DNA from: Clostridiales bacterium
GTDB taxonomy: Bacteria; Bacillota; Clostridia; Oscillospirales; Oscillospiraceae
Reading direction: 5' to 3'
Assembly: GCA_004555205.1 (NCBI GenBank)
Contig: SFIY01000005.1
Span: forward strand, 24,726 to 88,725
DNA length: 64,000 bases
Shown piece by piece: positions 4,454 to 64,000 of the stretch (positions are counted from its first letter, which is position 1; every line of letters starts with the position of its first letter). The translations under genes and the position numbers were made by a program. The notes under the pieces are model-generated. The model saw only the letters and a list, made by a program, of their open reading frames with translations. It was not told where the DNA came from and made no database searches.

Positions 4454-6193
4454 TCAGGTTTTCGGCACAAGTGAGACGGCATAGGTGTCAAGGATCGTCT
4501 CCTCACCTGCCATATACTGTACCCTGACGGTATCGCCAACGCTCAGCAGCGCCGCGCTGCGCTGATCGGCAGAGGAAACGGCATAGTACACATCCCCCTG
4601 TTCCAGACGCAGATAGTACCAGGTGTTGCCCTCGATAACGGCACTGCGAATTTCAGCGATCACGCCGGTGACCTCCTGCTGATCGGAGGGCTGTACCTCC
4701 GTGTCCTCCTGGGAGATCAGGTTGTTCCGCGCCAGCATCACGCGGTAGTTGCTCTCACACTCGGCAACCGTATTGCCGGTGGCCACGATCTGGTACTGGC
4801 TGACATTGACCATCGCATACATCTTCACCAGACCTGCGGCATCCTTCAGCGCCATGAAATAGGTGGGCTGGTCGGAAATGTTCAGCAGCAGCGGGAAGGT
4901 GGCCTCATACTTCATCTGCTGCACCTGACCCTGGGCACTGTCCATGGCGGAATATTCCTCCGCACCGGCCACAGAGTAAAAATGGGTTTCCTTGGTGCGC
5001 TGGTTGGACAGAATGAAGCCGATGTTGGATTCATCACTGACCACCGAGGTGATGCCGGTATACATATACACATCGTCACCGATGGCAATATAGTTGTAGC
5101 CGTCCGTGGTCACCGTCACATCGCGCTGACCGAACAGGGAATTGATGAAGCCGTTCACATAAGTGCCGTGGTAGTCATATTGCTGGATAATCAGGTTGGC
5201 GGTATACACATGGTCCACCCACTGGGGCACATCGTCCACCTCGTAGTAGGTGCACTCGCCGCTGACGGCATCCACCAGCACGGCGCCGATAATGTCCGTA
5301 CCGCCGAACAGACCGATGGTGCGGCTGATACGCGGGCACACCCAGTAGGGATTGCCCTGCTCATCGATCTCAAAAGCAGGCTCATCAAAAAGGTAGGTGG
5401 GATAGTGGAAACGCAGATAGCGGTAGAGATTGCGTCCGAAATGCTCCGCCGTGGTGTAGCGAATACCGTCCTCCAAACGGTGGACTTCCACATTCTGGGT
5501 CACCATGTCGATGACCAGATAGGCGGGCAGGCCGTCGGCACGGTTATTAAGCCACTTGATGATGTCGCCGTAGCGCAGGGGCGTCACACGGACGGGACGG
5601 CCCTTAAAATTGATCTGGGTGTAGTCGTCGGCCACTTCAAACTGAGATACCATGTCTGCCAGCTCGCCCAGCTTGCGGTTGCCCAGCTTCTTGGCGCTGG
5701 CGCTGTCCAGCATGGGGATCTGGTCAAAGCTGATCTCCTCCACTTCGGCGGCAAAGTCGCCCTCTTCCACCGCCAGCAGGTCACGGTAATCCGCAGCGCG
5801 GAATACCTCCCACGAAATAATGGAGCCCACCAAGGCCACAGCCAGCAGGCCTACCGTCAGGAAAAAAGGCACCTTGCACTGCTTTTTCACAAATTTGAAA
5901 TAGCCCTTGGCACCTGTCCCCTGAAAGCCGGAGGTAATCACGGCGCACACACAGTACACCACGGCCAGCAGCACAAAAAAGGTGTAAAACTCCGCCGTTT
6001 TGAGGTTGATGGCCGGCAGTACCACATAATAGTAGACGGCGGCAAACAGCAGCGTCACCGCCAGATTGATGGCCGTGCGTGCCGCAGGCGTGCCGATGGG
6101 CTTGCGTTCCTTCTTGGGGCGGTTCGTTTTGCGTGCAAAGGGATTTTGCCCCGCAAAGCCCTCAAAATTGGGGTCATTCCAATTAACGTTCAT
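4454..6193 (-). CDS. Conserved membrane-anchored protein of unknown function (3-4 N-terminal TM segments, about 440-aa extracytoplasmic domain)
   Basis: 579-aa ORF with SD AAGGAG 7 nt upstream of the ATG at 6193. Basic cytoplasmic N-terminus followed by hydrophobic helices. I recognise no catalytic motif. Confidence 0.6.
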   Translation of the reverse strand: MNVNWNDPNFEGFAGQNPFARKTNRPKKERKPIGTPAARTAINLAVTLLFAAVYYYVVLPAINLKTAEFYTFFVLLAVVYCVCAVITSGFQGTGAKGYFKFVKKQCKVPFFLTVGLLAVALVGSIISWEVFRAADYRDLLAVEEGDFAAEVEEISFDQIPMLDSASAKKLGNRKLGELADMVSQFEVADDYTQINFKGRPVRVTPLRYGDIIKWLNNRADGLPAYLVIDMVTQNVEVHRLEDGIRYTTAEHFGRNLYRYLRFHYPTYLFDEPAFEIDEQGNPYWVCPRISRTIGLFGGTDIIGAVLVDAVSGECTYYEVDDVPQWVDHVYTANLIIQQYDYHGTYVNGFINSLFGQRDVTVTTDGYNYIAIGDDVYMYTGITSVVSDESNIGFILSNQRTKETHFYSVAGAEEYSAMDSAQGQVQQMKYEATFPLLLNISDQPTYFMALKDAAGLVKMYAMVNVSQYQIVATGNTVAECESNYRVMLARNNLISQEDTEVQPSDQQEVTGVIAEIRSAVIEGNTWYYLRLEQGDVYYAVSSADQRSAALLSVGDTVRVQYMAGEETILDTYAVSLVPKT

Positions 6194-50310: not shown

Positions 50311-51093
50311 TCACTTTCCGTTCCTGCGCTGGCGCACCGCCTCGTACAGCAAAATAGCTGCCGCCGCCGATGCGTTCAAGGAAGAAATCTGACCCTTCAT
50401 GGGTATACTAACCAAAAAGTCACAGTTTTCCGTTACCAAGCGGCTCATGCCGTCGCCCTCGCTGCCGATCACAATGGCGGCCGGGCCCTTCAAATCGGCG
50501 TCATACAGCGTGGTGGTCCCCTCCGCGGCGGTGCCGAACACCCACACGCCCTGCTTTTTCAAATCCTTCAGCAGCGCCGCCATATTCGGCACACGGGCCA
50601 CGGGCATATAGCTCACCGCACCGGCAGAGGTCTTGGCCACCACGGCCGTCAAACCGGCACTGCGGCGCTTGGGAATAATGACGCCGTGGGCACCGGCACA
50701 CTCTGCCGTGCGCAAAATGGCGCCCAGATTGTGGGGGTCGGAGATCTCATCGCACACCACCAGCAAAGGCGCTTCGCCTTTTTCCGCCGCCGCCTCCAGA
50801 ATGGACTGCACGCTCACATATTCGCGCACGGCAGCCAGCGCGATCACGCCCTGATGGGCATGGGTGCGGCTCATATGATCCAGCTTGCGGCGATCCGCCT
50901 CCACCACGACAATCCCCCTGTCCCGGGCCTTGGAGGCAATGTGGCCCAGCGTTTTATCCGTTTCGCCCTTGGCAATATAAATCTTGTCAATGGCCGTTTC
51001 GGTGCGCAGCGCCTCAATCACGGCGTTGCGGCCTTCAATCATCCCGTCCGATATCGCTTCGTCAAAGGTTTTTTTCGTTTCGTGTTCTCTCAT
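50311..51093 (-). CDS. rlmB: 23S rRNA (guanosine-2'-O)-methyltransferase RlmB (SpoU/TrmH family)
   Basis: SpoU substrate-binding N-terminus plus DPHNLGAILRTAECAGA and IPMKGQISSLNASAAAAILLYE motifs. Confidence 0.9.
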   Translation of the reverse strand: MREHETKKTFDEAISDGMIEGRNAVIEALRTETAIDKIYIAKGETDKTLGHIASKARDRGIVVVEADRRKLDHMSRTHAHQGVIALAAVREYVSVQSILEAAAEKGEAPLLVVCDEISDPHNLGAILRTAECAGAHGVIIPKRRSAGLTAVVAKTSAGAVSYMPVARVPNMAALLKDLKKQGVWVFGTAAEGTTTLYDADLKGPAAIVIGSEGDGMSRLVTENCDFLVSIPMKGQISSLNASAAAAILLYEAVRQRRNGK

Positions 51094-51339
51094 ATGTTGA
51101 CCCTCAGTTTGGCGTCCTATTGGATTTCAGTCCCTACCGCGCCATTCGGGCACACTTGGCCTGCGCGGCGATTTTTCTTTTGGATTATAGCATATTCTTT
51201 CGTCAAGATAAAGCACCATTCATAGAAAATTTACAGAAAAACACGCCTTGTCCGACTTGTGAGTTTGTCGTTAATATGGTATACTGCCAAATAAATGAAA
51301 AGGTAACGCCTCGGCGTTTTTTATGGAAGGAGGGCCTTT

Positions 51340-53469
<2,130 letters not shown>

Positions 53470-54386: not shown

Positions 54387-55852
54387 TGTGCCTCACCTAC
54401 TTTCTTCAAAACATAGCTGAGCATATCCTCGCGGTCGATCACATCCCGATGCAGAACGCTCTTGTTCTGCAGCTGTGCCAGTCCCTTGGGCACGCTGACG
54501 CCGGTGGCACGCCGGAGCTGCTCCATCATGGCAAACTCATTCTCATCGGGCTTCCGGCCCAGTGCCTGCAGCACCGCCGCGGGGAATTTATAGGGCGAAG
54601 CGGTGGACAGCACCACCACAGGGGCCTTGTCCGTCTGCTGGGCCATAAACTGATCGGCGACCGTCCACGCCACCGCCGTGTGGGGGTCGCACAGGTAGTG
54701 CTCCTTTGCCCAGACTTTGCCGATGGTCTTTTCAGCGGTCTCATCATTGCAGCAGCCGCAGGAGAACAGCGCCTGCAGCTTGGCCAGCATTTCATCATGG
54801 ATCTGATAGCTGCCCGTGGCAGCCAACTGCTCCATCAGCGAGGCCACATATTTCTCATCGCCGCACAGCAGGTACAAAAGCCGCTCCAGGTTGCTGGACA
54901 CCAGGATGTCCATGGACGGAGAGATGGTCTTGTAGAACGGTCGGCACTTGTTATACCGTCCGGTGGAGATAAATTCCGTCAGCACATCGTTGGCATTGGA
55001 GGCGCACACCAGCCGTCCCACGGGCAAGCCCAGAAGTTTGGCAAAATAACCGGCCAGGATGTCACCGAAATTGCCGGTGGGCACCACAAAATGCACCTTG
55101 TCGCCCACGCGGATGCGTCCGGCATGTACCAAATCGGCATAGGCCTTGAAATAATACACCACCTGCGGCGCCAAACGGCCGATATTGATGGAGTTGGCCG
55201 AGGACAGCCGCGCACCGCCCAGGTCCATGCCGGCACACTGGGCAAATATGTTCTTTACGCCGGTCTGGGCATCGTCAAAGTTGCCGCGCACCGCGCACAC
55301 ACAGACATTACGGCCCTCCTGCGTGACCATCTGCGCCTGCTGCACGGCAGACACGCCGCCTTCGGGATAAAAGACAATGATCCTCGTGCCGGGCACATCG
55401 CGGAAGCCCTCCAGCGCCGCCTTGCCGGTATCACCGGAGGTGGCCGTCAGGATCACCGTATCGCCGCTGACACCCTCGCTCTGACGGGCAGCGGTGATGA
55501 GCTGGGGCAGAATACTCAGCGCCACATCCTTAAACGCGCTGGTAGGCCCGTGAAACAGCTCCAGCACATAGCGGTCGCCCACCTTGACCAGCGGGGTCAG
55601 CTCGTCGCTTTCAAATTTACCGGCATAGCCCCGCTGCACCAGCTCGCCCATGTCGTCAAAGTCCGGCAGCAGGGCCGACAGAATCCGCCGGGACATGGTA
55701 AAGGTGTCCTCCTCCAGCAGGGAGCGCCAGTCGAAATCTGCCTGCAGCAGATCCCGGGAAATGTAGAGTCCGCCATCGGGCGCAATACCCTCCAGTACGG
55801 CACGGGTGGAGGAGACTGTCCAGCAGCGATTGCGTGTACTTTGATAGTTCAT
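54380..55852 (-). CDS. thrC: Threonine synthase
   Basis: Start MNYQSTRN... with GGAGAA upstream. FHGPTSAFKD PLP-lysine motif. Overlaps thrB by 7 nt. Confidence 0.93.
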   Translation of the reverse strand: MNYQSTRNRCWTVSSTRAVLEGIAPDGGLYISRDLLQADFDWRSLLEEDTFTMSRRILSALLPDFDDMGELVQRGYAGKFESDELTPLVKVGDRYVLELFHGPTSAFKDVALSILPQLITAARQSEGVSGDTVILTATSGDTGKAALEGFRDVPGTRIIVFYPEGGVSAVQQAQMVTQEGRNVCVCAVRGNFDDAQTGVKNIFAQCAGMDLGGARLSSANSINIGRLAPQVVYYFKAYADLVHAGRIRVGDKVHFVVPTGNFGDILAGYFAKLLGLPVGRLVCASNANDVLTEFISTGRYNKCRPFYKTISPSMDILVSSNLERLLYLLCGDEKYVASLMEQLAATGSYQIHDEMLAKLQALFSCGCCNDETAEKTIGKVWAKEHYLCDPHTAVAWTVADQFMAQQTDKAPVVVLSTASPYKFPAAVLQALGRKPDENEFAMMEQLRRATGVSVPKGLAQLQNKSVLHRDVIDREDMLSYVLKKVGEAQW

Positions 55853-56082
55853 CGTTTCATTCTCCATTCTTTTGCGAATATCGTGAAAACCCTTGTCGGT
55901 TAAGATATCCAAATTCCTGCAAATTTTTTCTTGCATTTTGCATAACGCTATGATACACTGTCTTTGACAAAAAATCAAGTGTTTTTATCTCATGGACATT
56001 TCGTAGAAAATTGTCAATTCAAGTACACTTGTCCCCTGCCCCGGGCAAAAGGGTTGATCCCAGCAAAGAGAGGTAAAAAAGT

Positions 56083-57399
56083 ATGCTGAAAGTGTTGAAA
56101 TTCGGCGGATCCAGCATGGCTGACGCCACGCAGTTCGCCAAGGTGAAGTCCATTGTGGAATCAGACGAGAGCCGCCGGGTGGTGGTTGTGTCCGCCGCAG
56201 GAAAACGATTTAAGGACGATCATAAGCTGACCGACCTTTTGTATCTGTGCCACGCGCATCTGAAATACGGCGTTAGCTGTGACAGCGTCTATCAGATGAT
56301 CGTGGATCGCTATACCGCCATCCGTGATGAGCTGCATTTGAATGTGGATCTGGAGAGCGAGTTTGCCGCACTGCGCCGGAAGATGGACAAGGGCATTTCC
56401 CAGGACGAATTGGTCTCCCGCGGCGAGTATTTTGCCGCCAAGCTGATGGCCGCCTATCTGGGCTTTGCCTTTTTGGACAGCGAGCTGTGGCTGAAATTCA
56501 AGCTGGACGGCAGCGTGGATCAGGAGGCCACCTATGAGGCCCTGCGGCACGCGGCAGAGGGACGCAAGGTGGTCATTCCCGGCTTCTACGGCACCATGCC
56601 CGACGGCTCCATCAAGACCTTCTCCCGCGGCGGCAGCGACATTACCGGTGCGCTGGCCGCAGCCGCATTGGATGCCGATGTGTACGAAAACTGGACGGAT
56701 GTGTCCGGCTTCCTGATGGCCGATCCCAAAATCGTGCCCGATCCCGAGCCCATTGAGCGCATTACCTATTCCGAGCTTCGAGAACTGAGCTATATCGGCG
56801 CTCAGGTGCTGCACGAGGGCACCATCTTTCCGGTGCGGGAGAAGAACATCCCGCTGAACATCCGCAACACCAACCAGCCCGATCATCCCGGCACCATGAT
56901 CCGCGAGTCCTTTGAGGAAGTGGAGATGCCGGGCGACCGCTTCATTACCGGTATCGCCGGCAAGAAGGATTTCTCCGTCATTACCGTCACCAAGAACGGC
57001 ATGTCCAGCGAGCTGGGCGTCCTGCGCCAGATGCTGGAGGTGCTGGAAAAGTATCAGGTCAATGTGGAATACCTCCCCTCCGGCATCGACTCGGTATCGC
57101 TGGTGGTGGCCTCGGATAAGGCACAGCCGTGCCTGTATCAGATGATGGGCGATTTGCAGAAGGCTGTGAAGCCCGACAGCATCCATGTGACAGACAATAT
57201 GGCCATTGTGGCCGCCGTCGGCCGTAAGATGGCATTTAAGCCCGGTATTTCCGGCAAGATTTTCGCCACGCTGGGCGAAAACGGCATCAACATCCGTATG
57301 ATTACCCAAGGTCCGGAGGAGCTGAACATTATTGTCGGCGTGGACAACAAGGATTTCGCCTCCGCCATCCGTGTGCTGTACAACAGCTTTGTAAAATAA
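56083..57399 (+). CDS. Aspartate kinase
   Basis: VLKFGGSSMAD kinase N-terminus and C-terminal ACT domains. Confidence 0.9.
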   Translation: MLKVLKFGGSSMADATQFAKVKSIVESDESRRVVVVSAAGKRFKDDHKLTDLLYLCHAHLKYGVSCDSVYQMIVDRYTAIRDELHLNVDLESEFAALRRKMDKGISQDELVSRGEYFAAKLMAAYLGFAFLDSELWLKFKLDGSVDQEATYEALRHAAEGRKVVIPGFYGTMPDGSIKTFSRGGSDITGALAAAALDADVYENWTDVSGFLMADPKIVPDPEPIERITYSELRELSYIGAQVLHEGTIFPVREKNIPLNIRNTNQPDHPGTMIRESFEEVEMPGDRFITGIAGKKDFSVITVTKNGMSSELGVLRQMLEVLEKYQVNVEYLPSGIDSVSLVVASDKAQPCLYQMMGDLQKAVKPDSIHVTDNMAIVAAVGRKMAFKPGISGKIFATLGENGINIRMITQGPEELNIIVGVDNKDFASAIRVLYNSFVK

Positions 57400-57418
57400 G
57401 GAAAGGAAGTTTTTTGAT

Positions 57419-58423
57419 ATGAAGCAGTATAAGGTAGCCATCCTCGGCGCAACGGGCGCCGTGGGCCGTGAAATGATGAAAATTCTCGCCGAGCGCGATT
57501 TCCCCGTCAGCGAACTGCACCTGCTGGCCTCTCCCCGCTCTGTGGGGCAGAAGATCGCGTGGAAGGGTCAGGAGCTGACAGTGGAGCTGGCAGAGGATAA
57601 GGCCTTTGCAGGCATGGACATCGTTCTGGGCGCTGCCGAGAACGATATTGCCAAGAAGTTTGCTCCCGCCATCGTGAAGGCCGGCGCCGTGTTCGTGGAT
57701 AACTCCAGCGCATTCCGCATGGACCCCAATGTGCCTTTGATCGTGCCTGAGATCAACCCGGAAGATGTTAAAAATCACAAAGGCATCATCTCCAATCCCA
57801 ACTGCACCACCATTGTGTCCCTGGTGGCCGTCAATGCCCTGAATCAGGACAGCCCCATCCAATCCATGATCGCCTCCAGCTATCAGGCCACCTCCGGCGC
57901 CGGTGCAGGCGGCCCCATTGAGCTGATGAACGAAGTGGAGGCCCTGCGGGAGGGCAAGTCCTATGCGCCCAAGGTCTTCCAGTATCAGATTGCCTACAAT
58001 GTCATTCCCCAAATCGGCGGCGAGGCATTTGACGGCTATACCTCCGAGGAGATGAAGATGCAGAACGAGGGCCGCAAGATCATGCACCTGCCCGAGCTGA
58101 AGGTAAGCTGCACCTGTGTGCGCGTGCCTGTCATCCGCAGCCACAGTGTGTCCATCGTGGTACGCACCAAGGAGAAAATCAGCGTTGAACGTGCCCGCGA
58201 GCTGATCGCAGGCGCTCCCGGCTGCCGTCTGGTGGATGATCTGAAGAACAAGCAGTATCCCATGCCGCTGGACACCTCCGATCAGGACACCGTGTTTGTC
58301 GGCCGTATCCGCGATGATCTGACCAGCGACAACGGTCTGAACATCTGGTGCTGCGGCGACCAGGTCCGCAAGGGCGCTGCCACCAACGCCGTGCAGATCG
58401 CCGAGCTGCTGATTGAAAAGTAA
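57419..58423 (+). CDS. asd: Aspartate-semialdehyde dehydrogenase
   Basis: VAILGATGAVGREM and SNPNCTTI active-site Cys. Confidence 0.95.
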   Translation: MKQYKVAILGATGAVGREMMKILAERDFPVSELHLLASPRSVGQKIAWKGQELTVELAEDKAFAGMDIVLGAAENDIAKKFAPAIVKAGAVFVDNSSAFRMDPNVPLIVPEINPEDVKNHKGIISNPNCTTIVSLVAVNALNQDSPIQSMIASSYQATSGAGAGGPIELMNEVEALREGKSYAPKVFQYQIAYNVIPQIGGEAFDGYTSEEMKMQNEGRKIMHLPELKVSCTCVRVPVIRSHSVSIVVRTKEKISVERARELIAGAPGCRLVDDLKNKQYPMPLDTSDQDTVFVGRIRDDLTSDNGLNIWCCGDQVRKGAATNAVQIAELLIEK

Positions 58424-58436
58424 GGCGCACCGTATA

Positions 58437-58463
58437 AGGGCAGGAGGCCATGCCTCCTGCCCT
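58437..58463 (+). terminator. Terminator after asd
   Basis: AGGGCAGGAGGC-CAT-GCCTCCTGCCCT followed by TTTTT. Confidence 0.85.
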
Positions 58464-58564
58464 TTTTATGTCCGGCCTCCGGCGCAGAAGCGCAGCGATT
58501 CTTCGGCGCGCTTTTTCTGCTCCCCCCCTTTTTTCGATAAAAAGGGGCTGTCGCATTAAAGGCG

Positions 58565-58748
58565 ATTTGCACAAATCAGTGCCTCCCTCTGACGAGGGAG
58601 GTGGCACGGCTTTGCCGTGACGGAGGGAGAGAAGGGGTAAAGCCGCATAAAAATGCAACTTTTTCTCTCCCTCAGTTTCGCTACGCTCAACAGCTCCCTC
58701 GTCAGAGGGAGCCTTGAACTTAATAAAACTATTTCAGTTTGTGCAATT
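58565..58748. repeat. Roughly 185-bp nested inverted-repeat element (MITE/REP-like) in a convergent intergenic region
   Basis: Three arm pairs: ATTTGCACAAA (58565-75) with TTTGTGCAATT (58738-48); CCTCCCTCTGACGAGGGAGG (58582-601) with CTCCCTCGTCAGAGGGAG (58694-711); GAGGGAGAGAA (58623-33) with TTCTCTCCCTC (58663-73). Extra local hairpin CACGGC-TTT-GCCGTG. Confidence 0.6.
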
Positions 58749-58776
58749 TTACCATAACGCGACGGCCCTTTTTTAT

Positions 58777-59562
58777 TTAAGTCAGCAGCATACGGTCGTT
58801 GTCCAGCGTCTTCCCTGCACCGATCCTGAATCGGTCGAGCAGGTCGTCCACGCTCATGTTTTCCCGCTCTTCGCCCGCTACGTCCAGCACAATGCGGCCG
58901 CTGTCCATCATGATGGTGCGGTTGCCCAGCTCCAGCGCCTGGCGCATATTATGGGTCACCATCAATGTGGTAATGCGGTCCTTCGCCACGGTTTCGCGGG
59001 TGATCCTCAGCACCTTTTCCGCCGTGGCCGGGTCCAGCGCCGCCGTGTGCTCGTCCAGCAGCAGCAGCTTGGGCGGATGGAAGGTGGCCATCATCAGCGT
59101 CAGCGCCTGACGCTGACCGCCGGAGAGCAGCCCCACCGGCTGACGCATACGGTCCTCCAGCCCCATATCAAGCAGGCTGAGCCGGTCGCGGAAAAGCTGT
59201 TTTTCCTTTTTGCCCACATGGGAGAACCAGCCGCGGCTGCCCGCCGCCAAGGCCAGATTCTCCTCAATGGTCATATGCGGCGCGCTGCCGCGCATGGGAT
59301 CCTGAAACAGGCGGCCGATCTGACGGGCCCGCCGGTATTCGGGGGCAAAGGTCACATCCTCACCGTCGAGCACAATAGCGCCGCTGTCGGTAAGGAAGCT
59401 GCCGCAGATGGCGTTGAACAGGGTGGACTTGCCCGCGCCGTTGGAGCCGATAATGGTCACGAAGTCTCCCGGCGCAAGATGCAGGCTCAGATCGTTCAGG
59501 GCCAGCTTTTCATCCACCGTGCCGGGATGAAAGGTTTTGGAGATATGAGAAATGTCCAGCAT
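58777..59562 (-). CDS. ABC transporter ATP-binding protein (COG1101 type)
   Basis: GSNGAGKST Walker A, LSGGQRQAL signature, LLLDEHTAALD Walker B. Confidence 0.9.
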   Translation of the reverse strand: MLDISHISKTFHPGTVDEKLALNDLSLHLAPGDFVTIIGSNGAGKSTLFNAICGSFLTDSGAIVLDGEDVTFAPEYRRARQIGRLFQDPMRGSAPHMTIEENLALAAGSRGWFSHVGKKEKQLFRDRLSLLDMGLEDRMRQPVGLLSGGQRQALTLMMATFHPPKLLLLDEHTAALDPATAEKVLRITRETVAKDRITTLMVTHNMRQALELGNRTIMMDSGRIVLDVAGEERENMSVDDLLDRFRIGAGKTLDNDRMLLT

Positions 59563-59563
59563 C

Positions 59564-60490
59564 TTACCGCCCTCCTTTCCGTGCCGCCAGACGGCGGCGC
59601 AGCACAGGCATCTGCCGCTTGAGATACGGTGTGGCGATGGCCAGAATGACGATCACCGAGGACACCAGCTTGAGCATAAAGGCCGGCATATTCAATCGCA
59701 GGGCGATGGTATACACCAGGCGGAAGGCAAACGCGCCCACCACCATACCGATGGCGCGCTTCAAAATGCTGCCCCTGCCCATGAGCACCTGCCCGATCAG
59801 CAAAGAGGCCAGCGCCACGGTGACCATACCGGTGCCGATGTCAATGCTGACGGACTTCTGGGACTGGGCCAGCAAGCAGCCGGAGAGGCCTGTAAACGCA
59901 TTGGCCACGCAAAGACCCACGGTGGTGGTGAAAACGGGATTGATGGACGACGAGCGCACCATGTCGGGGTTATCGCCGGTCGCGCGGATGGCGAGACCCA
60001 AACGCGTATTGAGAAACACCGTCAGGATGGCCACCGTGGCTGCCACGGCAATCAGCGCCACAAGCAAGCGATACTGCTCGGCAAAGACCGTTCCCTCCAG
60101 CAGGGCTTTGGCCTTGGTGAACACCGTTTCGGTCTTGTTCATATTCAGAAGGGACGAGCCGTCCATGATCGCGATATTGATGGAATACAGGCCCGTATTG
60201 ACGATGATGCCCGCCAAAAGGCTGTCGATGCCCATGCGTGTCTGCAGGACTGCCGTAATCAGGCCGGAGCAAATGCCGGCTGCCATCGCCGCCGGAATGG
60301 CCAGATAGGGATGGCCGGAAATGGCCACCACTGCCCCCACGGCGGCGCCCAGAGTGAAGCAGCCGTCCGTGGACAGGTCGCAGACATTGAGCATGGAATA
60401 GCTCAGAAACAGTGCCAGCACCGTCAGCGAGCAGATCAGGCCCAATTCCAGGGCAGTCTGGCCCAATGACAGGAAGGATAGGACATTCAT
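59564..60490 (-). CDS. ABC transporter permease (COG4120 type)
   Basis: 308-aa polytopic protein between the matching ATPase and binding-protein genes. Confidence 0.85.
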   Translation of the reverse strand: MNVLSFLSLGQTALELGLICSLTVLALFLSYSMLNVCDLSTDGCFTLGAAVGAVVAISGHPYLAIPAAMAAGICSGLITAVLQTRMGIDSLLAGIIVNTGLYSINIAIMDGSSLLNMNKTETVFTKAKALLEGTVFAEQYRLLVALIAVAATVAILTVFLNTRLGLAIRATGDNPDMVRSSSINPVFTTTVGLCVANAFTGLSGCLLAQSQKSVSIDIGTGMVTVALASLLIGQVLMGRGSILKRAIGMVVGAFAFRLVYTIALRLNMPAFMLKLVSSVIVILAIATPYLKRQMPVLRRRLAARKGGR

Positions 60491-60516
60491 AAGATGGGAC
60501 TCCTTTGTGTGGTCGG

Positions 60517-61569
60517 TTAGTTCAGATCGTCGAAGCTGTCAGCGGTGACAATGCTCTGCACCTTGGTGCAGAGAGGAGCAAATGTGCTCCGGATGGTCTC
60601 AAAATCCAGGCCCAATTGCCGGCAGGTCTCCGTGTTGACGGTAGCAGTGCCGTTATCAAAGGTCTTCACCGAAAGCGTAGCAGGTTCGGCGCCGTTGAGC
60701 AAGATTTCTGCGATCATATTGGCCGTTTCCACGCCCAGATTGGTGTAATCCACGCCGTAGCCGAGAAATGCGCCGTTGAGTGCAAAGGAATCCGCGCCGG
60801 TGTAATGGGGGATACCGGCCTTTGCCAGCGTTTCATAGATAGACAGCTCCGCCGTCATGATGGTGTTGTCGGTGGGTGTGAAGATAGCGTCCACCTGATC
60901 GTTGATCAGTGCGTTGACAGCCAGCATGACCTCGTCGGTGGTGGTACCGGTGCGCTCGACGCACTTCACGCCCTTGGCAGCCAGATATGCCTTGGCATTG
61001 TTGATGGGTGTGGTGGACGAATCCTGACCCGGATCGTACAGCAGGCCGATGGTGTCCGCATCGGGATCCGCCGCGAAGATCAGATCCAGAATGGCGTCGG
61101 TATCCAGATAGTCGGAGGTGCCGGTGATGTTGGCGCCGGGAGCCTCCAGGCTTTCCACCAGGCCGGCGTCTATGGGGTCGGACACGGCGGCAAAGATAAC
61201 GGGAATACCGGTATCCTCCGTAGCCGCCTGCATGGCCATGGCCACAGGCGTTGCCACGCCCACCATCAGGTCCACCTGATCGACAATGAAGTTGGAGATG
61301 ATCTGGTTCATCACGGTGGCGTCGGCGTTGCAGTTATCATATGCAATGTCGAAGGTGACACCCTGCGCCTGGCCGATGGCGTTGAGCCGCGCGGTGATAT
61401 TGTCAACGATCTGGTTCAGGGATGCGTCGTCCACATAGTTGCAGATGCCGACTTTGAAGGTCTTGCCGTCAGCAGGTGCGTCGTTCTTGCTGCCGCAGGC
61501 GGCCAGCGTCAGCAGCATGATCGCTGCAGCCACCAGGGAAATAATGCGCTTCAATGTGTTCTTTTTCAT
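60517..61569 (-). CDS. ABC transporter substrate-binding lipoprotein (COG2984 type); predicted tryptophan-related uptake
   Basis: Start MKKNTLKRIISLVAAAIMLLTLAACGS (lipobox) with GGAGGT 8 nt upstream. The track ORF is over-extended into the leader. Confidence 0.85.
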   Translation of the reverse strand: MKKNTLKRIISLVAAAIMLLTLAACGSKNDAPADGKTFKVGICNYVDDASLNQIVDNITARLNAIGQAQGVTFDIAYDNCNADATVMNQIISNFIVDQVDLMVGVATPVAMAMQAATEDTGIPVIFAAVSDPIDAGLVESLEAPGANITGTSDYLDTDAILDLIFAADPDADTIGLLYDPGQDSSTTPINNAKAYLAAKGVKCVERTGTTTDEVMLAVNALINDQVDAIFTPTDNTIMTAELSIYETLAKAGIPHYTGADSFALNGAFLGYGVDYTNLGVETANMIAEILLNGAEPATLSVKTFDNGTATVNTETCRQLGLDFETIRSTFAPLCTKVQSIVTADSFDDLN

Positions 61570-61655
61570 GGTTTTGTACCTCCATATTTGCCTTTTCGGC
61601 GTAAAATAATGTTTGGGCGGCTGATGGAGGGCTATCAAAATCGTTTTTGGTAAAA

Positions 61656-61941
61656 CAAAAAAGAGCCTCCGTCCCCTACTATGGGACAAAAGCTCCAGCT
61701 TCTGCGATACCACCCAAATTGGCATATAAAATGCCCGCTCGCTTTCCGCGCCATCACGCGTACCCGATGGATAACGGGTGGGATCCCGTCGGCATCTACT
61801 GAGAAATCATTCCGTTCAAGCCGCCCTCGAAAGGCCATTCACATCACCGCGCACCGCCTTGATCTCACCGCCCAAGGCTCTCTTTGGGATTGCTTTGTCA
61901 TGCTACTTTTCTTTCTCACAGGTTTGTTTGTTTAATTGCTA
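61656..61941 (-). ncRNA. T-box leader (tRNA-sensing riboswitch), specifier UGG = Trp
   Basis: Minus-strand reading shows: AGTA, AGAGAG bulge, GCCTTG-GGCGGTGAGAT-CAAGGC distal loop, GAA-UGG-C specifier (UGG = 61845-61847), F-box CCGTTA, T-box AATTTGGGTGGTATCGCAG (61702-61720), and a 13-bp terminator helix plus U6 (61656-61696). Confidence 0.85.
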
Positions 61942-61947
61942 GGTATC

Positions 61948-61976
61948 ATCATATGCTCTTTTGGCCGCTTTGTCAA
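61948..61976 (-). promoter_or_regulatory. Promoter of the T-box-controlled ABC operon
   Basis: Minus strand: TTGACA (61971-61976), 17 nt, TATGAT (61948-61953). Confidence 0.7.
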
Positions 61977-62063
61977 GCACAATTTTTCTTTTTGCGGAAA
62001 AAAGTTTTCTTAAGGGAAACCACACAGCGCTTCTTGCTGAAACGATCTTATAAAAAGCAAAAA

Positions 62064-62090
62064 GCACGCAAATCCGAAGATTTTGCGTGC
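62064..62090 (-). terminator. Terminator directly 3' of the tRNA-Thr fragment
   Basis: GCACGCAAA (62064-72) pairs with TTTGCGTGC (62082-90), with a U-run on the minus strand. Looks like the native terminator of the tRNA gene. Confidence 0.75.
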
Positions 62091-62098
62091 TTTTCTCA

Positions 62099-62143
62099 TG
62101 GAGCTGCTGGGCGGATTTGAACCGCCGACCTCATCCTTACCAA
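62099..62143 (-). other. 3' half of tRNA-Thr(GGU), anticodon loop to CCA; att-type remnant, not a complete tRNA
   Basis: Minus strand: TTGGTAA-GGATG-AGGTC-GGCGG-TTCAAAT-CCGCC-CAGCAGC-T-CCA, i.e. anticodon loop (GGU), 3' anticodon stem, variable loop, T-arm, acceptor 3' strand, discriminator and CCA. The upstream sequence (GCCGG...) cannot pair with GGATG, and there is no D-arm or 5' acceptor strand. Confidence 0.75.
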
Positions 62144-62330
62144 CCGGCTTATCCCTCTCCAGTCACTGCTATACAAGGTTTTCCGGACTTTTTGACTGCA
62201 AACAGGAGGCTATCGGATTCTGTTTATCCCACTGCTTCCGTTCCCCGTGTGGGCCAGAAAGAGGAGCCACGGATTGGAATCAACCTTCCAAAAATGGCAA
62301 CACTGTAACCATAGAAAAGGTCACCCATGG

Positions 62331-63200
62331 CTACATGAAGAAACTGTCTATTTCTTCACGACAGGAAAGAATATCTTCATCTCTCACTCCTGCGGCTTTT
62401 GCCAGAAGGATAGATTGTAAGAAAGCATTTCTGAAATTCGGGACGAACGCATTTTCTACCAGTAAGTAGAACTGCTCGGCTTGATTATTCAGCTCTGCAA
62501 GAAAAAGCGTATATTTATGCTCCAGTTCCTCATCCAGCTGATACTGAGATATGATAAACTGGTTTACGATTTCCTGCTCTCTTCTGTAAAGCATCAATCT
62601 TCCATACTCAAATGCGAAGGATGCCACTGCCTGAGAAAAATCAGTAATTCTCTTATCGCCCATCAGTGCTGTCGCAGAAGCAAGGAGCTTTACCATCGCT
62701 TCAAGAGCAGCCCATAAGCAGTCTTCCGTGTACTTTACCTCGGTAATGATTCCGTTCCGCAACAATTCTGCGTTATTGTGAAGTTCATCGGCCAAGGCAT
62801 TGATTGTGTCGATAATCTTAGAGGGAACAACGCCTTTTATCAGTTCAGCAGAACAACGAATGTATCTTTCGAATAGGGTGAAGATGAAAACGCTGTATTC
62901 CTGATCGCTCGGAAGAATCGCAAACTTTGATACCGCACCGGCGATGTCCTTCCAATCGTCTGCTTCAAACTTTGATGGACTTTTGCCTTCCGCAATTTTA
63001 CGCAGAATAGCAAATGTCGCTATCGTTGCAGCTTTCCCGCCGGTCAGCTCCTGCTCGCCCCGCTTTTCAAGAATGGCATAGAAATGGTTTTGGACTACCT
63101 GAATCGTCTCCATTGCCTGTCCGAGTTTTTCGCCAACAGGAGTATTCAATAGTTGGTCTAATGCCAGGTTTTTCAGGTAACTCTTAAGATTGTTCTCCAT
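62331..63200 (-). CDS. Hypothetical protein, 289 aa, helix-rich by composition, no TM segment, no family recognised
   Basis: ATG at 63200 with GGAGAGG upstream. Overlaps the stop of the upstream gene by 17 nt. AT-rich codon usage unlike the host genes. Confidence 0.65.
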   Translation of the reverse strand: MENNLKSYLKNLALDQLLNTPVGEKLGQAMETIQVVQNHFYAILEKRGEQELTGGKAATIATFAILRKIAEGKSPSKFEADDWKDIAGAVSKFAILPSDQEYSVFIFTLFERYIRCSAELIKGVVPSKIIDTINALADELHNNAELLRNGIITEVKYTEDCLWAALEAMVKLLASATALMGDKRITDFSQAVASFAFEYGRLMLYRREQEIVNQFIISQYQLDEELEHKYTLFLAELNNQAEQFYLLVENAFVPNFRNAFLQSILLAKAAGVRDEDILSCREEIDSFFM

Positions 63201-64000
63201 TTTCCTCTCCGATTATCTTTCCAAACAGCGCAGCCAGCGCCTTGGTATTATTTACCAATGCTCCCAGGAGATACTTTTGTTCTTCATCAAGAGATAAGTA
63301 GTCTGCGCCATACAGGGGCAATGCTCTTGCCAACATATCATTTAATCCTGTCCGTGTCATGGCCGTTTCGGATAGGACCACACCAATTTTAGCATCCATT
63401 TCACGCACCGACTCAATGTTCTGCTTGACAGCTTGAATCTCTTGATTCTTCTGCTTATTCAATTTAGTCTTCTTTGCAGTGAAAATCAGTATAGAGGACA
63501 GCAGAGTTGCTCCGGCAATCGTCCAGCCAACAGGGCCGGCCAATGCCAGCAAGGCATTACCCGCCGCCATTCCACCGCCGCTTGCAGCAAGCGCGCCACC
63601 GCCGAGCCAAGCCAATGCTGCATTTGTTGCCGCGGCACCTGAGAGCGTTGAAATTGCTGCGCCAGTAGACGCAGTGCCAAATGTAGTTGCTATCCACATG
63701 GCCGCAGTAGGTGCCATAAATGCTACGGAAGCACCGGCGGCTAATCCTGCACCTGCTCCCGTGGCTGCTTTTCTTGCTTCCTGAAGCTCACGATTCGCAA
63801 ATTCACAGGAATCCGTAAATTTTTTCCTGTTGGTCAGAATCTCTTCAAATTCTGCGTCAAAAGACTTCGGGCGATTTGCGATACTGTTAACAAGGCCCTC
63901 TACAAAAGATATAGTATCAACTGCGCGGCTTCTCTCAACATAGAGCCGTATCCCTTTATCGTTCATCATGGTGTAAGCATCATTATATTCCGTTACAGCT
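63184..64000 (-). CDS. Hypothetical membrane protein with a Gly/Ala-zipper hydrophobic core; probably 5'-truncated by the window edge
   Basis: The track starts it at ATG 63969, but the frame stays open to 64000 (..AVTEYNDAYTMMNDKG..) and there is no SD before 63969. Residues about 68-164 of the visible part (nt about 63478-63768) are small-xxx-small repeats (GAGAGLAAGAS, LAWLGGGALAASGGGMAAGNALLALAG). These are flanked by charged regions that are probably helical. Confidence 0.65.
   Translation of the reverse strand, partial: AVTEYNDAYTMMNDKGIRLYVERSRAVDTISFVEGLVNSIANRPKSFDAEFEEILTNRKKFTDSCEFANRELQEARKAATGAGAGLAAGASVAFMAPTAAMWIATTFGTASTGAAISTLSGAAATNAALAWLGGGALAASGGGMAAGNALLALAGPVGWTIAGATLLSSILIFTAKKTKLNKQKNQEIQAVKQNIESVREMDAKIGVVLSETAMTRTGLNDMLARALPLYGADYLSLDEEQKYLLGALVNNTKALAALFGKIIGEENGEQS

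Follow-up and report, generated by a model that had tools for sequence, protein, structure and literature searches.

Does a short copy of the 3' half of a tRNA gene, found where the base composition of a chromosome drops, mark the far end of a large integrated island, or is it all that is left of a smaller one? The question is raised by the right-hand end of a 64,000-nt stretch of clostridial DNA (the window), for which a first-pass annotation had favored the large island. As set out below, the half copy is probably the right end of a decayed islet of 3.1 kb that has lost its integrase. All comparison sequences used here are metagenome contigs, none of them a closed genome.

The tRNA half copy in the window

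The features of the locus are given below in window coordinates.

61988-62063, minus strand: remainder of the strain-invariant block, ending where the cassette-less strains regain homology, just upstream of the T-box promoter
62064-62090, minus strand: hairpin and T-run resembling an intrinsic terminator (from fold energy and z-score)
62091-62098, minus strand: TGAGAAAA, which lengthens the direct repeat to 53 nt in the window strain
62099-62143, minus strand: att core, a displaced fragment of the target gene (45-nt tRNA-Thr(GGU) 3' half, anticodon loop to CCA)
62144-62260, minus strand: degenerate element arm (P arm) adjoining the core (from alignment to element arms)
62331-63200, minus strand: 289-aa gene, PDC-M09B-like second gene of a candidate defence pair (PADLOC PDLC04408)
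63184-64000, minus strand: PDC-M09A-like gene, the 3' 272 codons of a 341-aa gene (PADLOC PDLC04406)

Positions 62099-62143 of the minus strand read TTGGTAAGGATGAGGTCGGCGGTTCAAATCCGCCCAGCAGCTCCA. This 45-mer is identical to the 3' 45 nt of the intact tRNA-Thr(GGU) gene, as located by ARAGORN on contigs of the same locus (L001-L011), and it occurs a single time in the window when up to 3 mismatches are allowed (0 of 100 shuffles). The bases 5' of the fragment are GCCGG where the intact gene has CATCC, and the 5' half of the tRNA is therefore truly absent. ARAGORN found zero tRNA genes over the whole window. A permissive Rfam search of 61900-62400 returned a T-arm-sized match to the tmRNA/tRNA clan and noise, with no other RNA family. 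Both the identity of the 3' half and the loss of the 5' half had been recognized by the first-pass annotation and are borne out.

The fragment is followed at 62064-62090 by a hairpin with the stems AAAAGCACGCAAA and TTTGCGTGCTTTT and the T-run TTTTTGCTTTTT. Its fold energy is -19.7 kcal/mol (z = -4.0), and none of 200 shuffles was equally stable. By sequence and fold, this GC-containing hairpin directly 5' of the U-run UUUUUGCUUUUU has the make-up of an intrinsic (Rho-independent) terminator, in agreement with the earlier proposal of a terminator at this position; a simple terminator scan missed it. Transcripts of cassette and fragment would be stopped at the hairpin, short of the T-box operon. 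A functional tie of the tRNA half to the neighboring T-box was rejected: the bulge of the T-box, UGGU, pairs with a discriminator A, and this tRNA-Thr has U. The specifier region of the T-box holds no Thr codon in the authors' own reading of the alignment. The sharp drop in GC noted at the junction is real, from 57.6% (window 1-61987) to 46.6% (62144-64000).

The intact tRNA and the repeat-bounded interval

Contig k141_16398 of ERZ27309564 (L008/L011) is 100% identical to the window over 9001 nt and extends past position 64000; ERZ940877 is another of the samples with the locus. On L011 an intact tRNA-Thr(GGU) gene occupies 1984-2059, equivalent to window 65235-65310 and thus ~1.2 kb past the window end. 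The window fragment lies at 5151-5195 on the plus strand, as does the intact tRNA-Thr; intact tRNA-Asp and tRNA-Thr(GGU) are found 3136 nt upstream of it in direct orientation. A repeat search on this contig gave a direct repeat of 53 nt with 100% identity and a spacing of 3136. In L009, L111 and L116, where an alternative hairpin follows the intact tRNA, the shared stretch is 45-46 nt only.

The interval between the repeats measures 3091 nt. Its GC content is 45.1% overall and 44.6% in the 97-aa part, compared with 57.6-57.9% in the flanks. Its genes on L011 encode proteins of 97, 341 and 289 aa, none with PF00589. No integrase gene was found in the interval on L011, and a tblastn search for an integrase pseudogene with 11 integrases of same-core elements gave nothing below E = 0.1. 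Further right, a single recombinase was seen: ~3.2 kb past the window end lies the 3' end of a serine recombinase, part of a separate insertion in another gene.

The first-pass annotation had thus read the window correctly as showing an integration junction at the tRNA-Thr 3' half, with compositionally foreign DNA leading to an intact tRNA-Thr right of 64000. It had also placed the integrase and most of the cargo there. L011 has no integrase gene or detectable pseudogene in the interval, and 1857 nt of the interval (60%) lie inside the window.

The element arm and other copies of the core

The 115 nt located 5' of the fragment are homologous to the arm of the GACCCACAC-repeat element family. 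BLAST with the arm alone gave no match, and alignment scores were therefore judged against shuffles. The local alignment reached z = 21-22 with L159 and L193 and z = 10-12 with L161, L149 and L171; arms of other att families, used as controls, stayed at z <= 2.3. In four of the five closest arm relatives the core is followed by an integrase gene or by the contig end. One GGCCCACAC arm-type repeat is kept in the window at 62247-62255, and the second repeat has been lost together with 9 further nt. A second genome has this arm, with both repeats, after a cassette 91% identical to the present one. Exact searches of viral contigs for the arm-core junction, the hairpin and relatives of the 341-aa protein returned 0 matches each.

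Other exact copies of the 45-mer are frequent in public viral and metagenome contigs, and 52 of the 90 are non-tRNA att copies (8 of 9 in IMG/VR and 44 of 81 metagenome occurrences). All 52 begin at the same base as the window fragment, and almost all are followed by a hairpin and T-run. Of the 44 metagenome fragment loci, 16 have a tyrosine-integrase gene ~190-1670 nt past the core. Judging by these copies and the arm homology, the fragment is a genuine site-specific recombination scar.

The window hairpin is ~85% similar, core included, to the hairpins that follow the core in L167, L192, L199, L209, L151 and L197. An integrase gene is present on each of these loci with the exception of L199, and it lies within ~500 nt after the hairpin in L167, L209, L151 and L197. 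That 62064-62090 is the native terminator of the tRNA gene is no more than a possibility, as its closest relatives adjoin mobile-element integrase genes. The hairpin type after the intact tRNA (H-type) is chromosomal in a related lineage (L150, L172), where a MatE gene then follows. Both types have been found in both settings, chromosomal and element. At the present locus, the intact tRNA is followed by the chromosomal type and the fragment by the integrase-associated type. A single simple integration would give the opposite pairing, and the finding speaks against the reading preferred below.

The cargo genes

The 341-aa gene starts at window-equivalent 64209 (full gene: L011 3085-4110). The window end truncates it to a 261-aa ORF, which is why an exact lookup of that ORF was empty. 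The full-length protein matches PADLOC PDLC04406 over its entire length (E = 3.6e-121) and contains a Gly/Ala-rich hydrophobic core at residues 150-245. It has >6700 homologues; among the matches listed, none is named by its source. The 289-aa protein matches PDLC04408 (E = 1.5e-26) at profile positions 264-485 of 486, and Pfam, PHROG and PDB searches with it gave no match.

The A and B genes are adjacent and overlap by 17 nt, the adjacency that PADLOC expects of PDC-M09. The pairing of B with A recurs in other species, where the two genes are found among AbiE, Nmad/WYL, NERD and SLFN-helicase genes. The pair may have a role in defence. The genes right of the junction had been described as orphan, which holds for Pfam (neither of the two ORFs is above threshold) and fails for PADLOC (both match candidate-defence profiles). 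The remaining 97-aa ORF matches phrog_37230 (E = 5.8e-13).

The AlphaFold models of the pair are poor. The A model has a pLDDT of 52.7, and the B model, which is all-alpha, one of 67.8 and no fold match. Foldseek returned nothing below E = 0.2 and PDB sequence searches for the cargo proteins nothing below E = 0.05. Among the matches listed, 10 of 10 for the exact 341-aa protein and 10 of 10 for the 289-aa protein lie at the present locus.

Strain variation and the search for an empty site

Six contigs of the locus are without the cassette (L016, L111, L116 and L128-L130). They retain the 560 nt nearest to the tRNA, including the 97-aa ORF, and are missing a 2685-nt block, whose borders fall at window-equivalent 64672 and 61988 and not at the repeats; the right border is at window 61987/61988. 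The block is replaced by 30 nt of unrelated filler, for which neither the islet nor the L001 island offers a source. A search for transposon-like ends of the block found no terminal repeats, inverted or direct. A 12-nt repeat common to the block and the T-box promoter was considered as a transposon-like end and rejected, as it is within chance expectation. A search for a decayed second core at the junction of the cassette-less strains gave nothing above chance.

Where the block is present it is strikingly uniform, with 0-2 mismatches across 10 strains compared with 10-49 in comparable flank segments. The fragment, terminator and tail show 0-1 mismatch per 156 nt in 10 strains, and the tRNA-proximal 560 nt vary normally between strains. 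The flanks of the block-bearing strains differ by 1-2%. Since the right 2.7 kb (cassette, arm, core and hairpin) are almost invariant amid these diverged flanks, they look recently spread within the species. This spread looks most simply explained by homologous recombination in the flanks.

The empty site would read CATCC + 45-mer + TGAGAAAAGCACGC, and the excised circle would read GGATAAGCCGG + 45-mer + TGAGAAAAAACCCTGCAACC. A precise empty site, in which tRNA-Thr is directly followed by the 62064-62090 hairpin, is found on no contig; its junction 36-mer had 0 matches in the metagenome collection, and no excision product was seen in the contigs searched. A genome collection, with the ABC substrate-binding protein as anchor, gave as best relatives MAGs of Oscillospiraceae and other Clostridia with only 76% identity; none has the 45-mer nearby, so that synteny yields no empty site either. 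The empty site predicted for related genomes was thus not recovered, and the cassette-less strains differ by a block with other borders. Both points weigh against the preferred reading.

In strain L001 a 7.7 kb island separates the tRNA from the islet. It brings a third core copy and encodes a tyrosine integrase, an HTH repressor and a D5_N primase. The tRNA-Thr target is therefore still in use. This island has its own AAGTTGCAAC arm repeats and the islet has none of them; because the arm repeats differ, the island is not the parent of the islet.

Origin of the islet

In the preferred reading, to which a probability of about 0.55 is assigned, the fragment is the right-end att site (arm and 45-nt core) of a decayed tyrosine-integrase element that had integrated into tRNA-Thr(GGU). 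The observations on which it builds are the repeat, the arm homology, the lack of an integrase, the cargo matches, the strain polymorphism and the tandem island of one strain. The likely course of events is the following. A tyrosine-integrase element would have inserted into the segment of tRNA-Thr(GGU) from the anticodon loop to the 3' end. Integration would have rebuilt the tRNA at the left end, ~1.2 kb past the window, and displaced the original 3' half with its downstream sequence to the right end seen in the window. The element would then have decayed to the 3.1 kb islet, losing its integrase and most of its genes as well as one of the two arm-type repeats and 9 nt of the arm. The presumed survivors are the phage-like 97-aa ORF, an AT-rich promoter region and the PDC-M09-like two-gene candidate cassette, which would have been placed next to the arm, the usual cargo position in such elements. 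The hairpin after the fragment may now end cassette transcription and thereby shield the ABC transporter operon controlled by the T-box. Excision of the islet is probably no longer possible.

A tandem array is a possible but rather unlikely source of the same arrangement. The scar would then be an attP-joint remnant composed of one element's arm, the core and the arm on the integrase side of a second element; or else the 2.7 kb block arrived whole. In the first case, the second element would have entered the displaced copy, and the distal element would later have been deleted with the native flank up to the T-box promoter. In the second case, a block from another lineage would have recombined into an ancestral order of tRNA-Thr, hairpin, 97-aa ORF and T-box. 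Such histories would account for the ~85% similarity of the window hairpin to those of the six loci above, with an integrase within ~500 nt in four, and for the chromosomal H-type hairpin after the intact tRNA in L150 and L172. They also suit the cassette-less strains, which are common and show normal diversity at the junction, next to a nearly invariant block that includes fragment and hairpin and has borders other than the repeats; L001 proves that tandem arrays at tRNA-Thr exist. However, at 44.6% GC the 97-aa region equals the cassette in AT-richness, and since its ORF has a phage-family match as well, the cassette-less arrangement is not a clean native site. Moreover, the cassette-less junction holds no decayed core, and 62052-61988, downstream of the hairpin, matches no element arm. 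The hairpin types are freely swapped between hosts and elements and are therefore weak markers.

It is doubtful, though conceivable, that the near-invariant 2.7 kb block is an integrase-less candidate defence cassette still moving between strains, with borrowed integrases or with the att remnant as a recombination handle. If this were true, decayed att scars at tRNA genes would be both landing pads and carriers for defence genes.

That the whole islet is still mobile in the manner of a CIME, being excised, transferred and re-integrated in trans or in cis by the integrase of a related element at the same tRNA and so taking the candidate defence cassette from strain to strain, is improbable. In favor of such mobility are the perfect 53-nt direct repeat, the near-zero diversity of the cassette block in strains with diverged flanks, the integrase island in tandem in L001 and a core common to many integrase elements. 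The low-diversity block, however, is not the repeat-bounded unit, as the tRNA-proximal 560 nt vary normally. The AAGTTGCAAC arm repeats of the L001 island are also missing from the islet, in whose own arm one repeat and 9 nt have been lost. A precise empty site is on no contig, and the exact 341-aa and 289-aa proteins occur at one locus only among the matches listed (10 each).

The far junction of a large intact island, with integrase and main cargo beyond 64000, is very improbable. The direction was correct, with an intact tRNA-Thr to the right, and L001 does carry an integrase island right of the islet. That island has its own core copy, however, and is a separate, additional element. On L011 the 3.1 kb between intact tRNA and fragment hold three small ORFs and lack an integrase, and the large island is refuted for the genome that L011 represents. 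Finally, a tRNA pseudogene, formed by local duplication or by decay of a second tRNA-Thr gene with no mobile element involved, hardly deserves credit despite the tRNA gene cluster nearby: the copy has 100% identity with the live gene, ends at the anticodon loop at the same base as the 52 non-tRNA copies, is flanked by an element arm and shows no trace of a 5' half.

Significance

The locus is a familiar kind of genomic scar; it involves no new mechanism and leaves the understanding of such elements unchanged. It illustrates that what a tRNA half with a terminator flags can be a very small remnant devoid of an integrase and need not be a large island, and island finders that require an integrase will miss such islets. 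In gut Clostridia, the stretch between anticodon loop and CCA of tRNA-Thr(GGU) is very heavily used for integration, more than half of the sampled 45-mer copies being att copies in mobile DNA. Tied to the integration traffic at this tRNA is an uncharacterised pair of candidate defence genes that has thousands of homologues, and the near-invariant cassette block in otherwise diverged strains suggests recent spread.

Comparison with known systems

In the Islander survey of Hudson, Lau and Williams 2015 (PMC4383910), the anticodon crossover class is the commoner of two (2083 of 3919 islands). The islet shares with such tRNA islands the regenerated tRNA and the displaced 3' fragment that mark both ends in direct orientation, here on one replicon in L011 with the intact partner outside the window, as well as the compositionally foreign intervening DNA. 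As in the anticodon-centred attP class, the fragment starts at the canonical crossover sublocation, with identity beginning at the first anticodon-loop base. In contrast to Islander islands, it is very small (3.1 kb), has no tyrosine integrase inside the interval and is known from no empty-site allele bordered by the repeats. Islander's integrase filter would therefore reject it.

PDC-M09 is one of 145 phage-defence candidates from guilt-by-embedding (bioRxiv 10.1101/2024.01.29.577857). The name is absent from the main text of that preprint, and no other paper naming it was found. The islet pair resembles PDC-M09 in the full-length A match, the B match and the overlap of the two genes, which move together and often lie near known defence genes. 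It differs in that the 289-aa protein covers only the C-terminal half of the 486-residue PDC-M09B profile; a B form of ~290 aa is the rule in this clade.

The 7.7 kb island of L001, which lies outside the window, can be likened by its genes to PICI or P4-like phage satellites, as it has the set of integrase, repressor and D5-type primase. It uses the 45-nt core of the islet with different arm repeats.

A review (PMC5704250, citing Pavlovic 2004 and Bellanger 2011) defines CIMEs and tandem accretion for streptococcal ICESt1-type elements. The islet, like a CIME, retains attL and attR, as seen in the perfect 53-nt direct repeat and the element-type arm at the right copy. The second, integrase-bearing element in tandem at the same target gene in L001 fits the three-step scheme of decay and then accretion given in that review. 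The likeness is one of sequence, and there are differences: the arm repeats of the tandem island are missing from the islet, whose own arm is degenerate, and the incoming island of L001 sits at the tRNA side and not at the displaced copy. The islet is read here as a decayed island remnant, close to a CIME, and its parent is more likely to have been a small element of phage or satellite type than an ICE.

A displaced tRNA-Thr half and its partner beyond the window

The minus strand of the window carries a 45-nt copy of the 3' half of tRNA-Thr(GGU) (the fragment), reading TTGGTAAGGATGAGGTCGGCGGTTCAAATCCGCCCAGCAGCTCCA. Its surroundings were followed on contig k141_16398 (ENA ERZ27309564; loci L008, L011 and L108), which is 100% identical to window 55000-64000, runs 3293 nt past 64000 and, on this 9 kb of identity, is taken to be the window's continuation. 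Contigs bearing the locus come from pig and other gut metagenomes.

Features of the locus (positions beyond 64000 are window-equivalents on k141_16398)
65314-65390, minus: tRNA-Asp
65235-65310, minus: intact tRNA-Thr(GGU)
64735-65028: 97-aa ORF
start at 64209, minus: 341-aa gene, the complete form of the ORF running off the window end
within the window at higher coordinates than the fragment, minus: 289-aa ORF, upstream of the fragment
62143-62099, minus: tRNA-Thr 3'-half copy
62064-62090, minus: hairpin (13+13 bp) and T-run directly after the fragment, -19.7 kcal/mol, z = -4.0
61976-61948, minus: near-consensus promoter downstream of the fragment hairpin
61928-61679, minus: T-box leader (RF00230), 102 bits against a threshold of 93
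downstream of the T-box, minus: ABC transporter operon (PF04392 binding protein, permease, ATPase)

The first-pass annotation had read the fragment as a tRNA half lacking its 5' part, and both claims hold. The copy runs exactly from the GGU anticodon loop through the 3' anticodon stem, variable loop, complete T-arm and 3' acceptor strand to discriminator U and CCA; 5' of the loop stands GCCGG, where the live tRNA-Thr gene has CATCC, and an ARAGORN scan of the entire window yields no tRNA. The window contains the 45-mer only once even when up to three mismatches are allowed, and 0 of 100 shuffles contain it. The proposed terminator was confirmed as a stable hairpin with T-run, although a simple terminator scan does not pick it up. 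The reported GC drop is likewise real, from 57.6% left of 61988 to 46.6% in 62144-64000.

The intact tRNA-Thr expected to the right of 64000 lies on the identical contig. It forms with the fragment a direct repeat of 53 nt (45-mer plus TGAGAAAA) at a spacing of 3136 nt. Between the two copies lies an interval of 3091 nt (the islet), 60% of it inside the window, with three small genes. The annotation had also placed an integrase and most of the cargo beyond 64000, which did not hold: no integrase gene is among the three, and tblastn with eleven integrases from core-using elements reveals no integrase pseudogene in the interval. In the genome for which the identical contig stands, no large intact island can lie beyond the window. 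The whole interval is foreign by composition (45.1% GC; 44.6% in the 97-aa part).

Further out, L011 1-1690 (about 65604-67293) encodes a 220-aa RelA_SpoT-domain protein (PADLOC PDC-S33, E = 1e-22) between tRNA-Trp and tRNA-Asp, with a 307-aa HTH_3 membrane protein as partner. The strain of the window lacks the first 46 codons of the HTH gene; in their place is the terminal part of an element, the last gene of which encodes a DUF4368 (large serine recombinase) protein.

The fragment as a recombination scar

Three lines of evidence identify the fragment as a recombination scar: the use of its 45-mer as an attachment core, the homology of the adjoining arm (the element DNA next to the core), and the linkage of arm and cassette (the 341-aa and 289-aa gene pair) elsewhere. 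In IMG/VR, 8 of 9 exact 45-mer copies are non-tRNA copies in viral contigs. The metagenome collection holds 81 copies. Of these, 44 are non-tRNA copies and show fifteen or more different left flanks; 16 of the 44 have a tyrosine-integrase gene about 190-1670 nt past the core. All non-tRNA copies share their starting base with the window copy, and nearly all precede a hairpin and T-run. An anticodon-centred integration site is the commoner class (PMC4383910).

Among sampled copies of the tRNA-Thr 3' half, more than half are attachment copies in mobile DNA (metagenome loci L133-L212), with at least 15 distinct arms. L170 and L206 resemble complete, repeat-flanked islands of about 7 kb with an integrase adjoining the displaced copy; one contig (L140 and L161) carries two fragment copies and no intact tRNA.

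One core-using family has an arm homologous to the 115 nt that adjoin the fragment on its 5' side (62144-62260); alignment scores are 21-22 SD above shuffles for L159 and L193 and 10-12 SD for L161, L149 and L171, against at most 2.3 SD for the arms of seven other families. In the homologous family a pair of GACCCACAC repeats lies about 105-130 nt away from the core, a position that would be expected of arm-type integrase binding sites. The window arm keeps one repeat, GGCCCACAC at 62247-62255, and has lost 9 nt. In GCA_019972935.1, the same arm, here with both repeats, comes after a 91%-identical two-gene cassette and is then cut by an IS256-family insertion. That cassette (L264-L267, the NCBI assembly and ENA contigs) stands beside lipoate and 2-oxoacid dehydrogenase genes. 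Another homologue, with an A protein (the 341-aa type) 95% identical, adjoins an ISL3 transposase (L253).

One pig-gut contig (L001/L254) has three core copies, in the order intact tRNA-Thr, 7.7 kb island, core copy, 3.1 kb islet, core copy. The island encodes a tyrosine integrase (PF00589, E = 5e-30), an HTH repressor and a D5_N/DUF5906 primase-helicase. Near its ends it bears AAGTTGCAAC repeats of its own, two on the left and four on the right; none occurs near the islet ends. The tRNA-Thr site is thus still visited by elements.

Strain comparison and readings of the locus

Same-species contigs can be sorted into three types by the sequence that immediately precedes the T-box promoter. Type A (20 of the loci examined, window included) has cassette, fragment and hairpin. 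Type B (L016, L111, L116, L128, L129, L130) reads tRNA-Asp, tRNA-Thr, hairpin, 97-aa ORF, 30 nt of unrelated sequence and promoter, and lacks both the cassette and a second core. In type C (L013) other AT-rich DNA is found, with almost the same breakpoint. From this comparison it follows that types A and B differ by a block whose borders are not the repeats (2685 nt, window-equivalent 64672 to 61988). Over ten strains the block shows 0-2 mismatches; the same strains differ by 2-33 per 1471 nt in the T-box/binding-protein segment, 18-28 per 1823 nt in permease/ATPase and 10-40 per 2700 nt in asd/ask. The left part of the invariant block (L011 2675-2686) and the T-box promoter spacer (L011 5331-5342, window 61952-61963) share an exact 12-nt repeat, CAAAAGAGCATA, and are somewhat similar around it; the repeat does not exceed what chance would give in a region this large.

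At its start the interval has a hairpin resembling the integrase-side arm of the L001 island (about 78% similarity over 58 nt), and it ends in a recognisable element arm plus core. These two ends and the foreign GC therefore favour a single old integration, a reading to which we assign a probability of roughly 55%. An element would have integrated once at tRNA-Thr and then decayed; type B would have arisen by deletion, and recombination in the flanks would account for a recent spread of the type A block.

The stretch directly after the intact tRNA-Thr is hypervariable, with at least three hairpin versions showing compensating stem changes, and the 53-nt repeat length holds with only one of them. 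This hairpin (L011 2060-2113; equivalent position in L009, L016, L111, L116, L001 and L021) has a conserved CAAYGGTTAC centre, and the DNA on either side is 98-99% identical. The variability may be the scar of repeated visits by elements with look-alike arms. The type that follows the intact tRNA is part of the chromosome in a related lineage, with MatE after it, and also occurs on three elements (L001, L021, L210); the type after the window fragment is mostly found beside element integrases. The hairpin types thus do not sort as a single integration predicts. The main rival holds that fragment and hairpin are the joint of two former tandem elements, or arrived within an imported block; it is judged a distinctly less probable account. 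The predicted empty site, tRNA-Thr followed directly by the 62064-62090 hairpin, failed to appear on any contig, and its junction 36-mer has no match in the metagenome collection. Present-day trans-mobilisation of the islet is improbable.

The neighbouring T-box operon

The full T-box leader governs the PF04392-type ABC transporter operon, which adjoins asd/ask/thrC/thrB. Its tRNA-end-binding bulge is UGGU; because this implies discriminator A while the adjacent tRNA-Thr carries U, tRNA-Thr is not the tRNA to which the T-box is tuned. AUG or UGG is the probable specifier. With the transporter protein as probe, the best genome relatives were Oscillospiraceae and other Clostridia MAGs, at identities of at most 76%; the representative genomes reached in this way did not include the species itself. 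Two short GC dips to about 47% (51000-51500 and 55750-56250) are by position intergenic (FtsH/SpoU-methylase and thrC/ask) and outside islands. L110 11258-13611 (about window 51.3-53.5 kb) carries a 690-aa opposite-strand gene without Pfam domains where other strains have FtsH, and thrC alleles of 490 and 518 aa occur among strains.

Cargo of the islet

The two ORFs right of the fragment had been called orphans, and neither the 341-aa nor the 289-aa protein matches a Pfam family above threshold. In PADLOC, the former matches PDC-M09A over its full length (E = 3.6e-121) and the latter the C-terminal half of the PDC-M09B profile (E = 1.5e-26). The PDC systems are 145 untested candidates from 'guilt by embedding' (bioRxiv 10.1101/2024.01.29.577857); no mention of PDC-M09 by name was found in the literature searched. 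Public assemblies contain the 289-aa protein in 129 blocks. Over 6700 homologues exist for the A protein; of the 120 that were listed, not one bears a source name. In other species the A gene and a B gene of about 290 aa form the same overlapping pair, amid AbiE, SLFN-like helicase, Vsr/methylase, Nmad2/3-WYL and NERD genes or alone amid housekeeping genes, with no tRNA fragment beside it. Long helices around a Gly/Ala-rich hydrophobic core (residues 150-245) lead us to predict that the A protein is a membrane protein. For the cargo proteins, neither structure prediction nor a fold search produced a usable result. The 97-aa ORF matches solely a phage protein family of unknown function.

Comparison with known systems

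In orientation and sublocation, the feature resembles the displaced-fragment end of a tRNA-gene island; it differs in having no integrase, and no empty site is known. The decay-then-accretion scheme of cis-mobilizable elements (CIMEs) fits the islet (PMC5704250), although mobilisation, the property that gives them their name, looks doubtful here. The locus belongs to an already known kind of feature.
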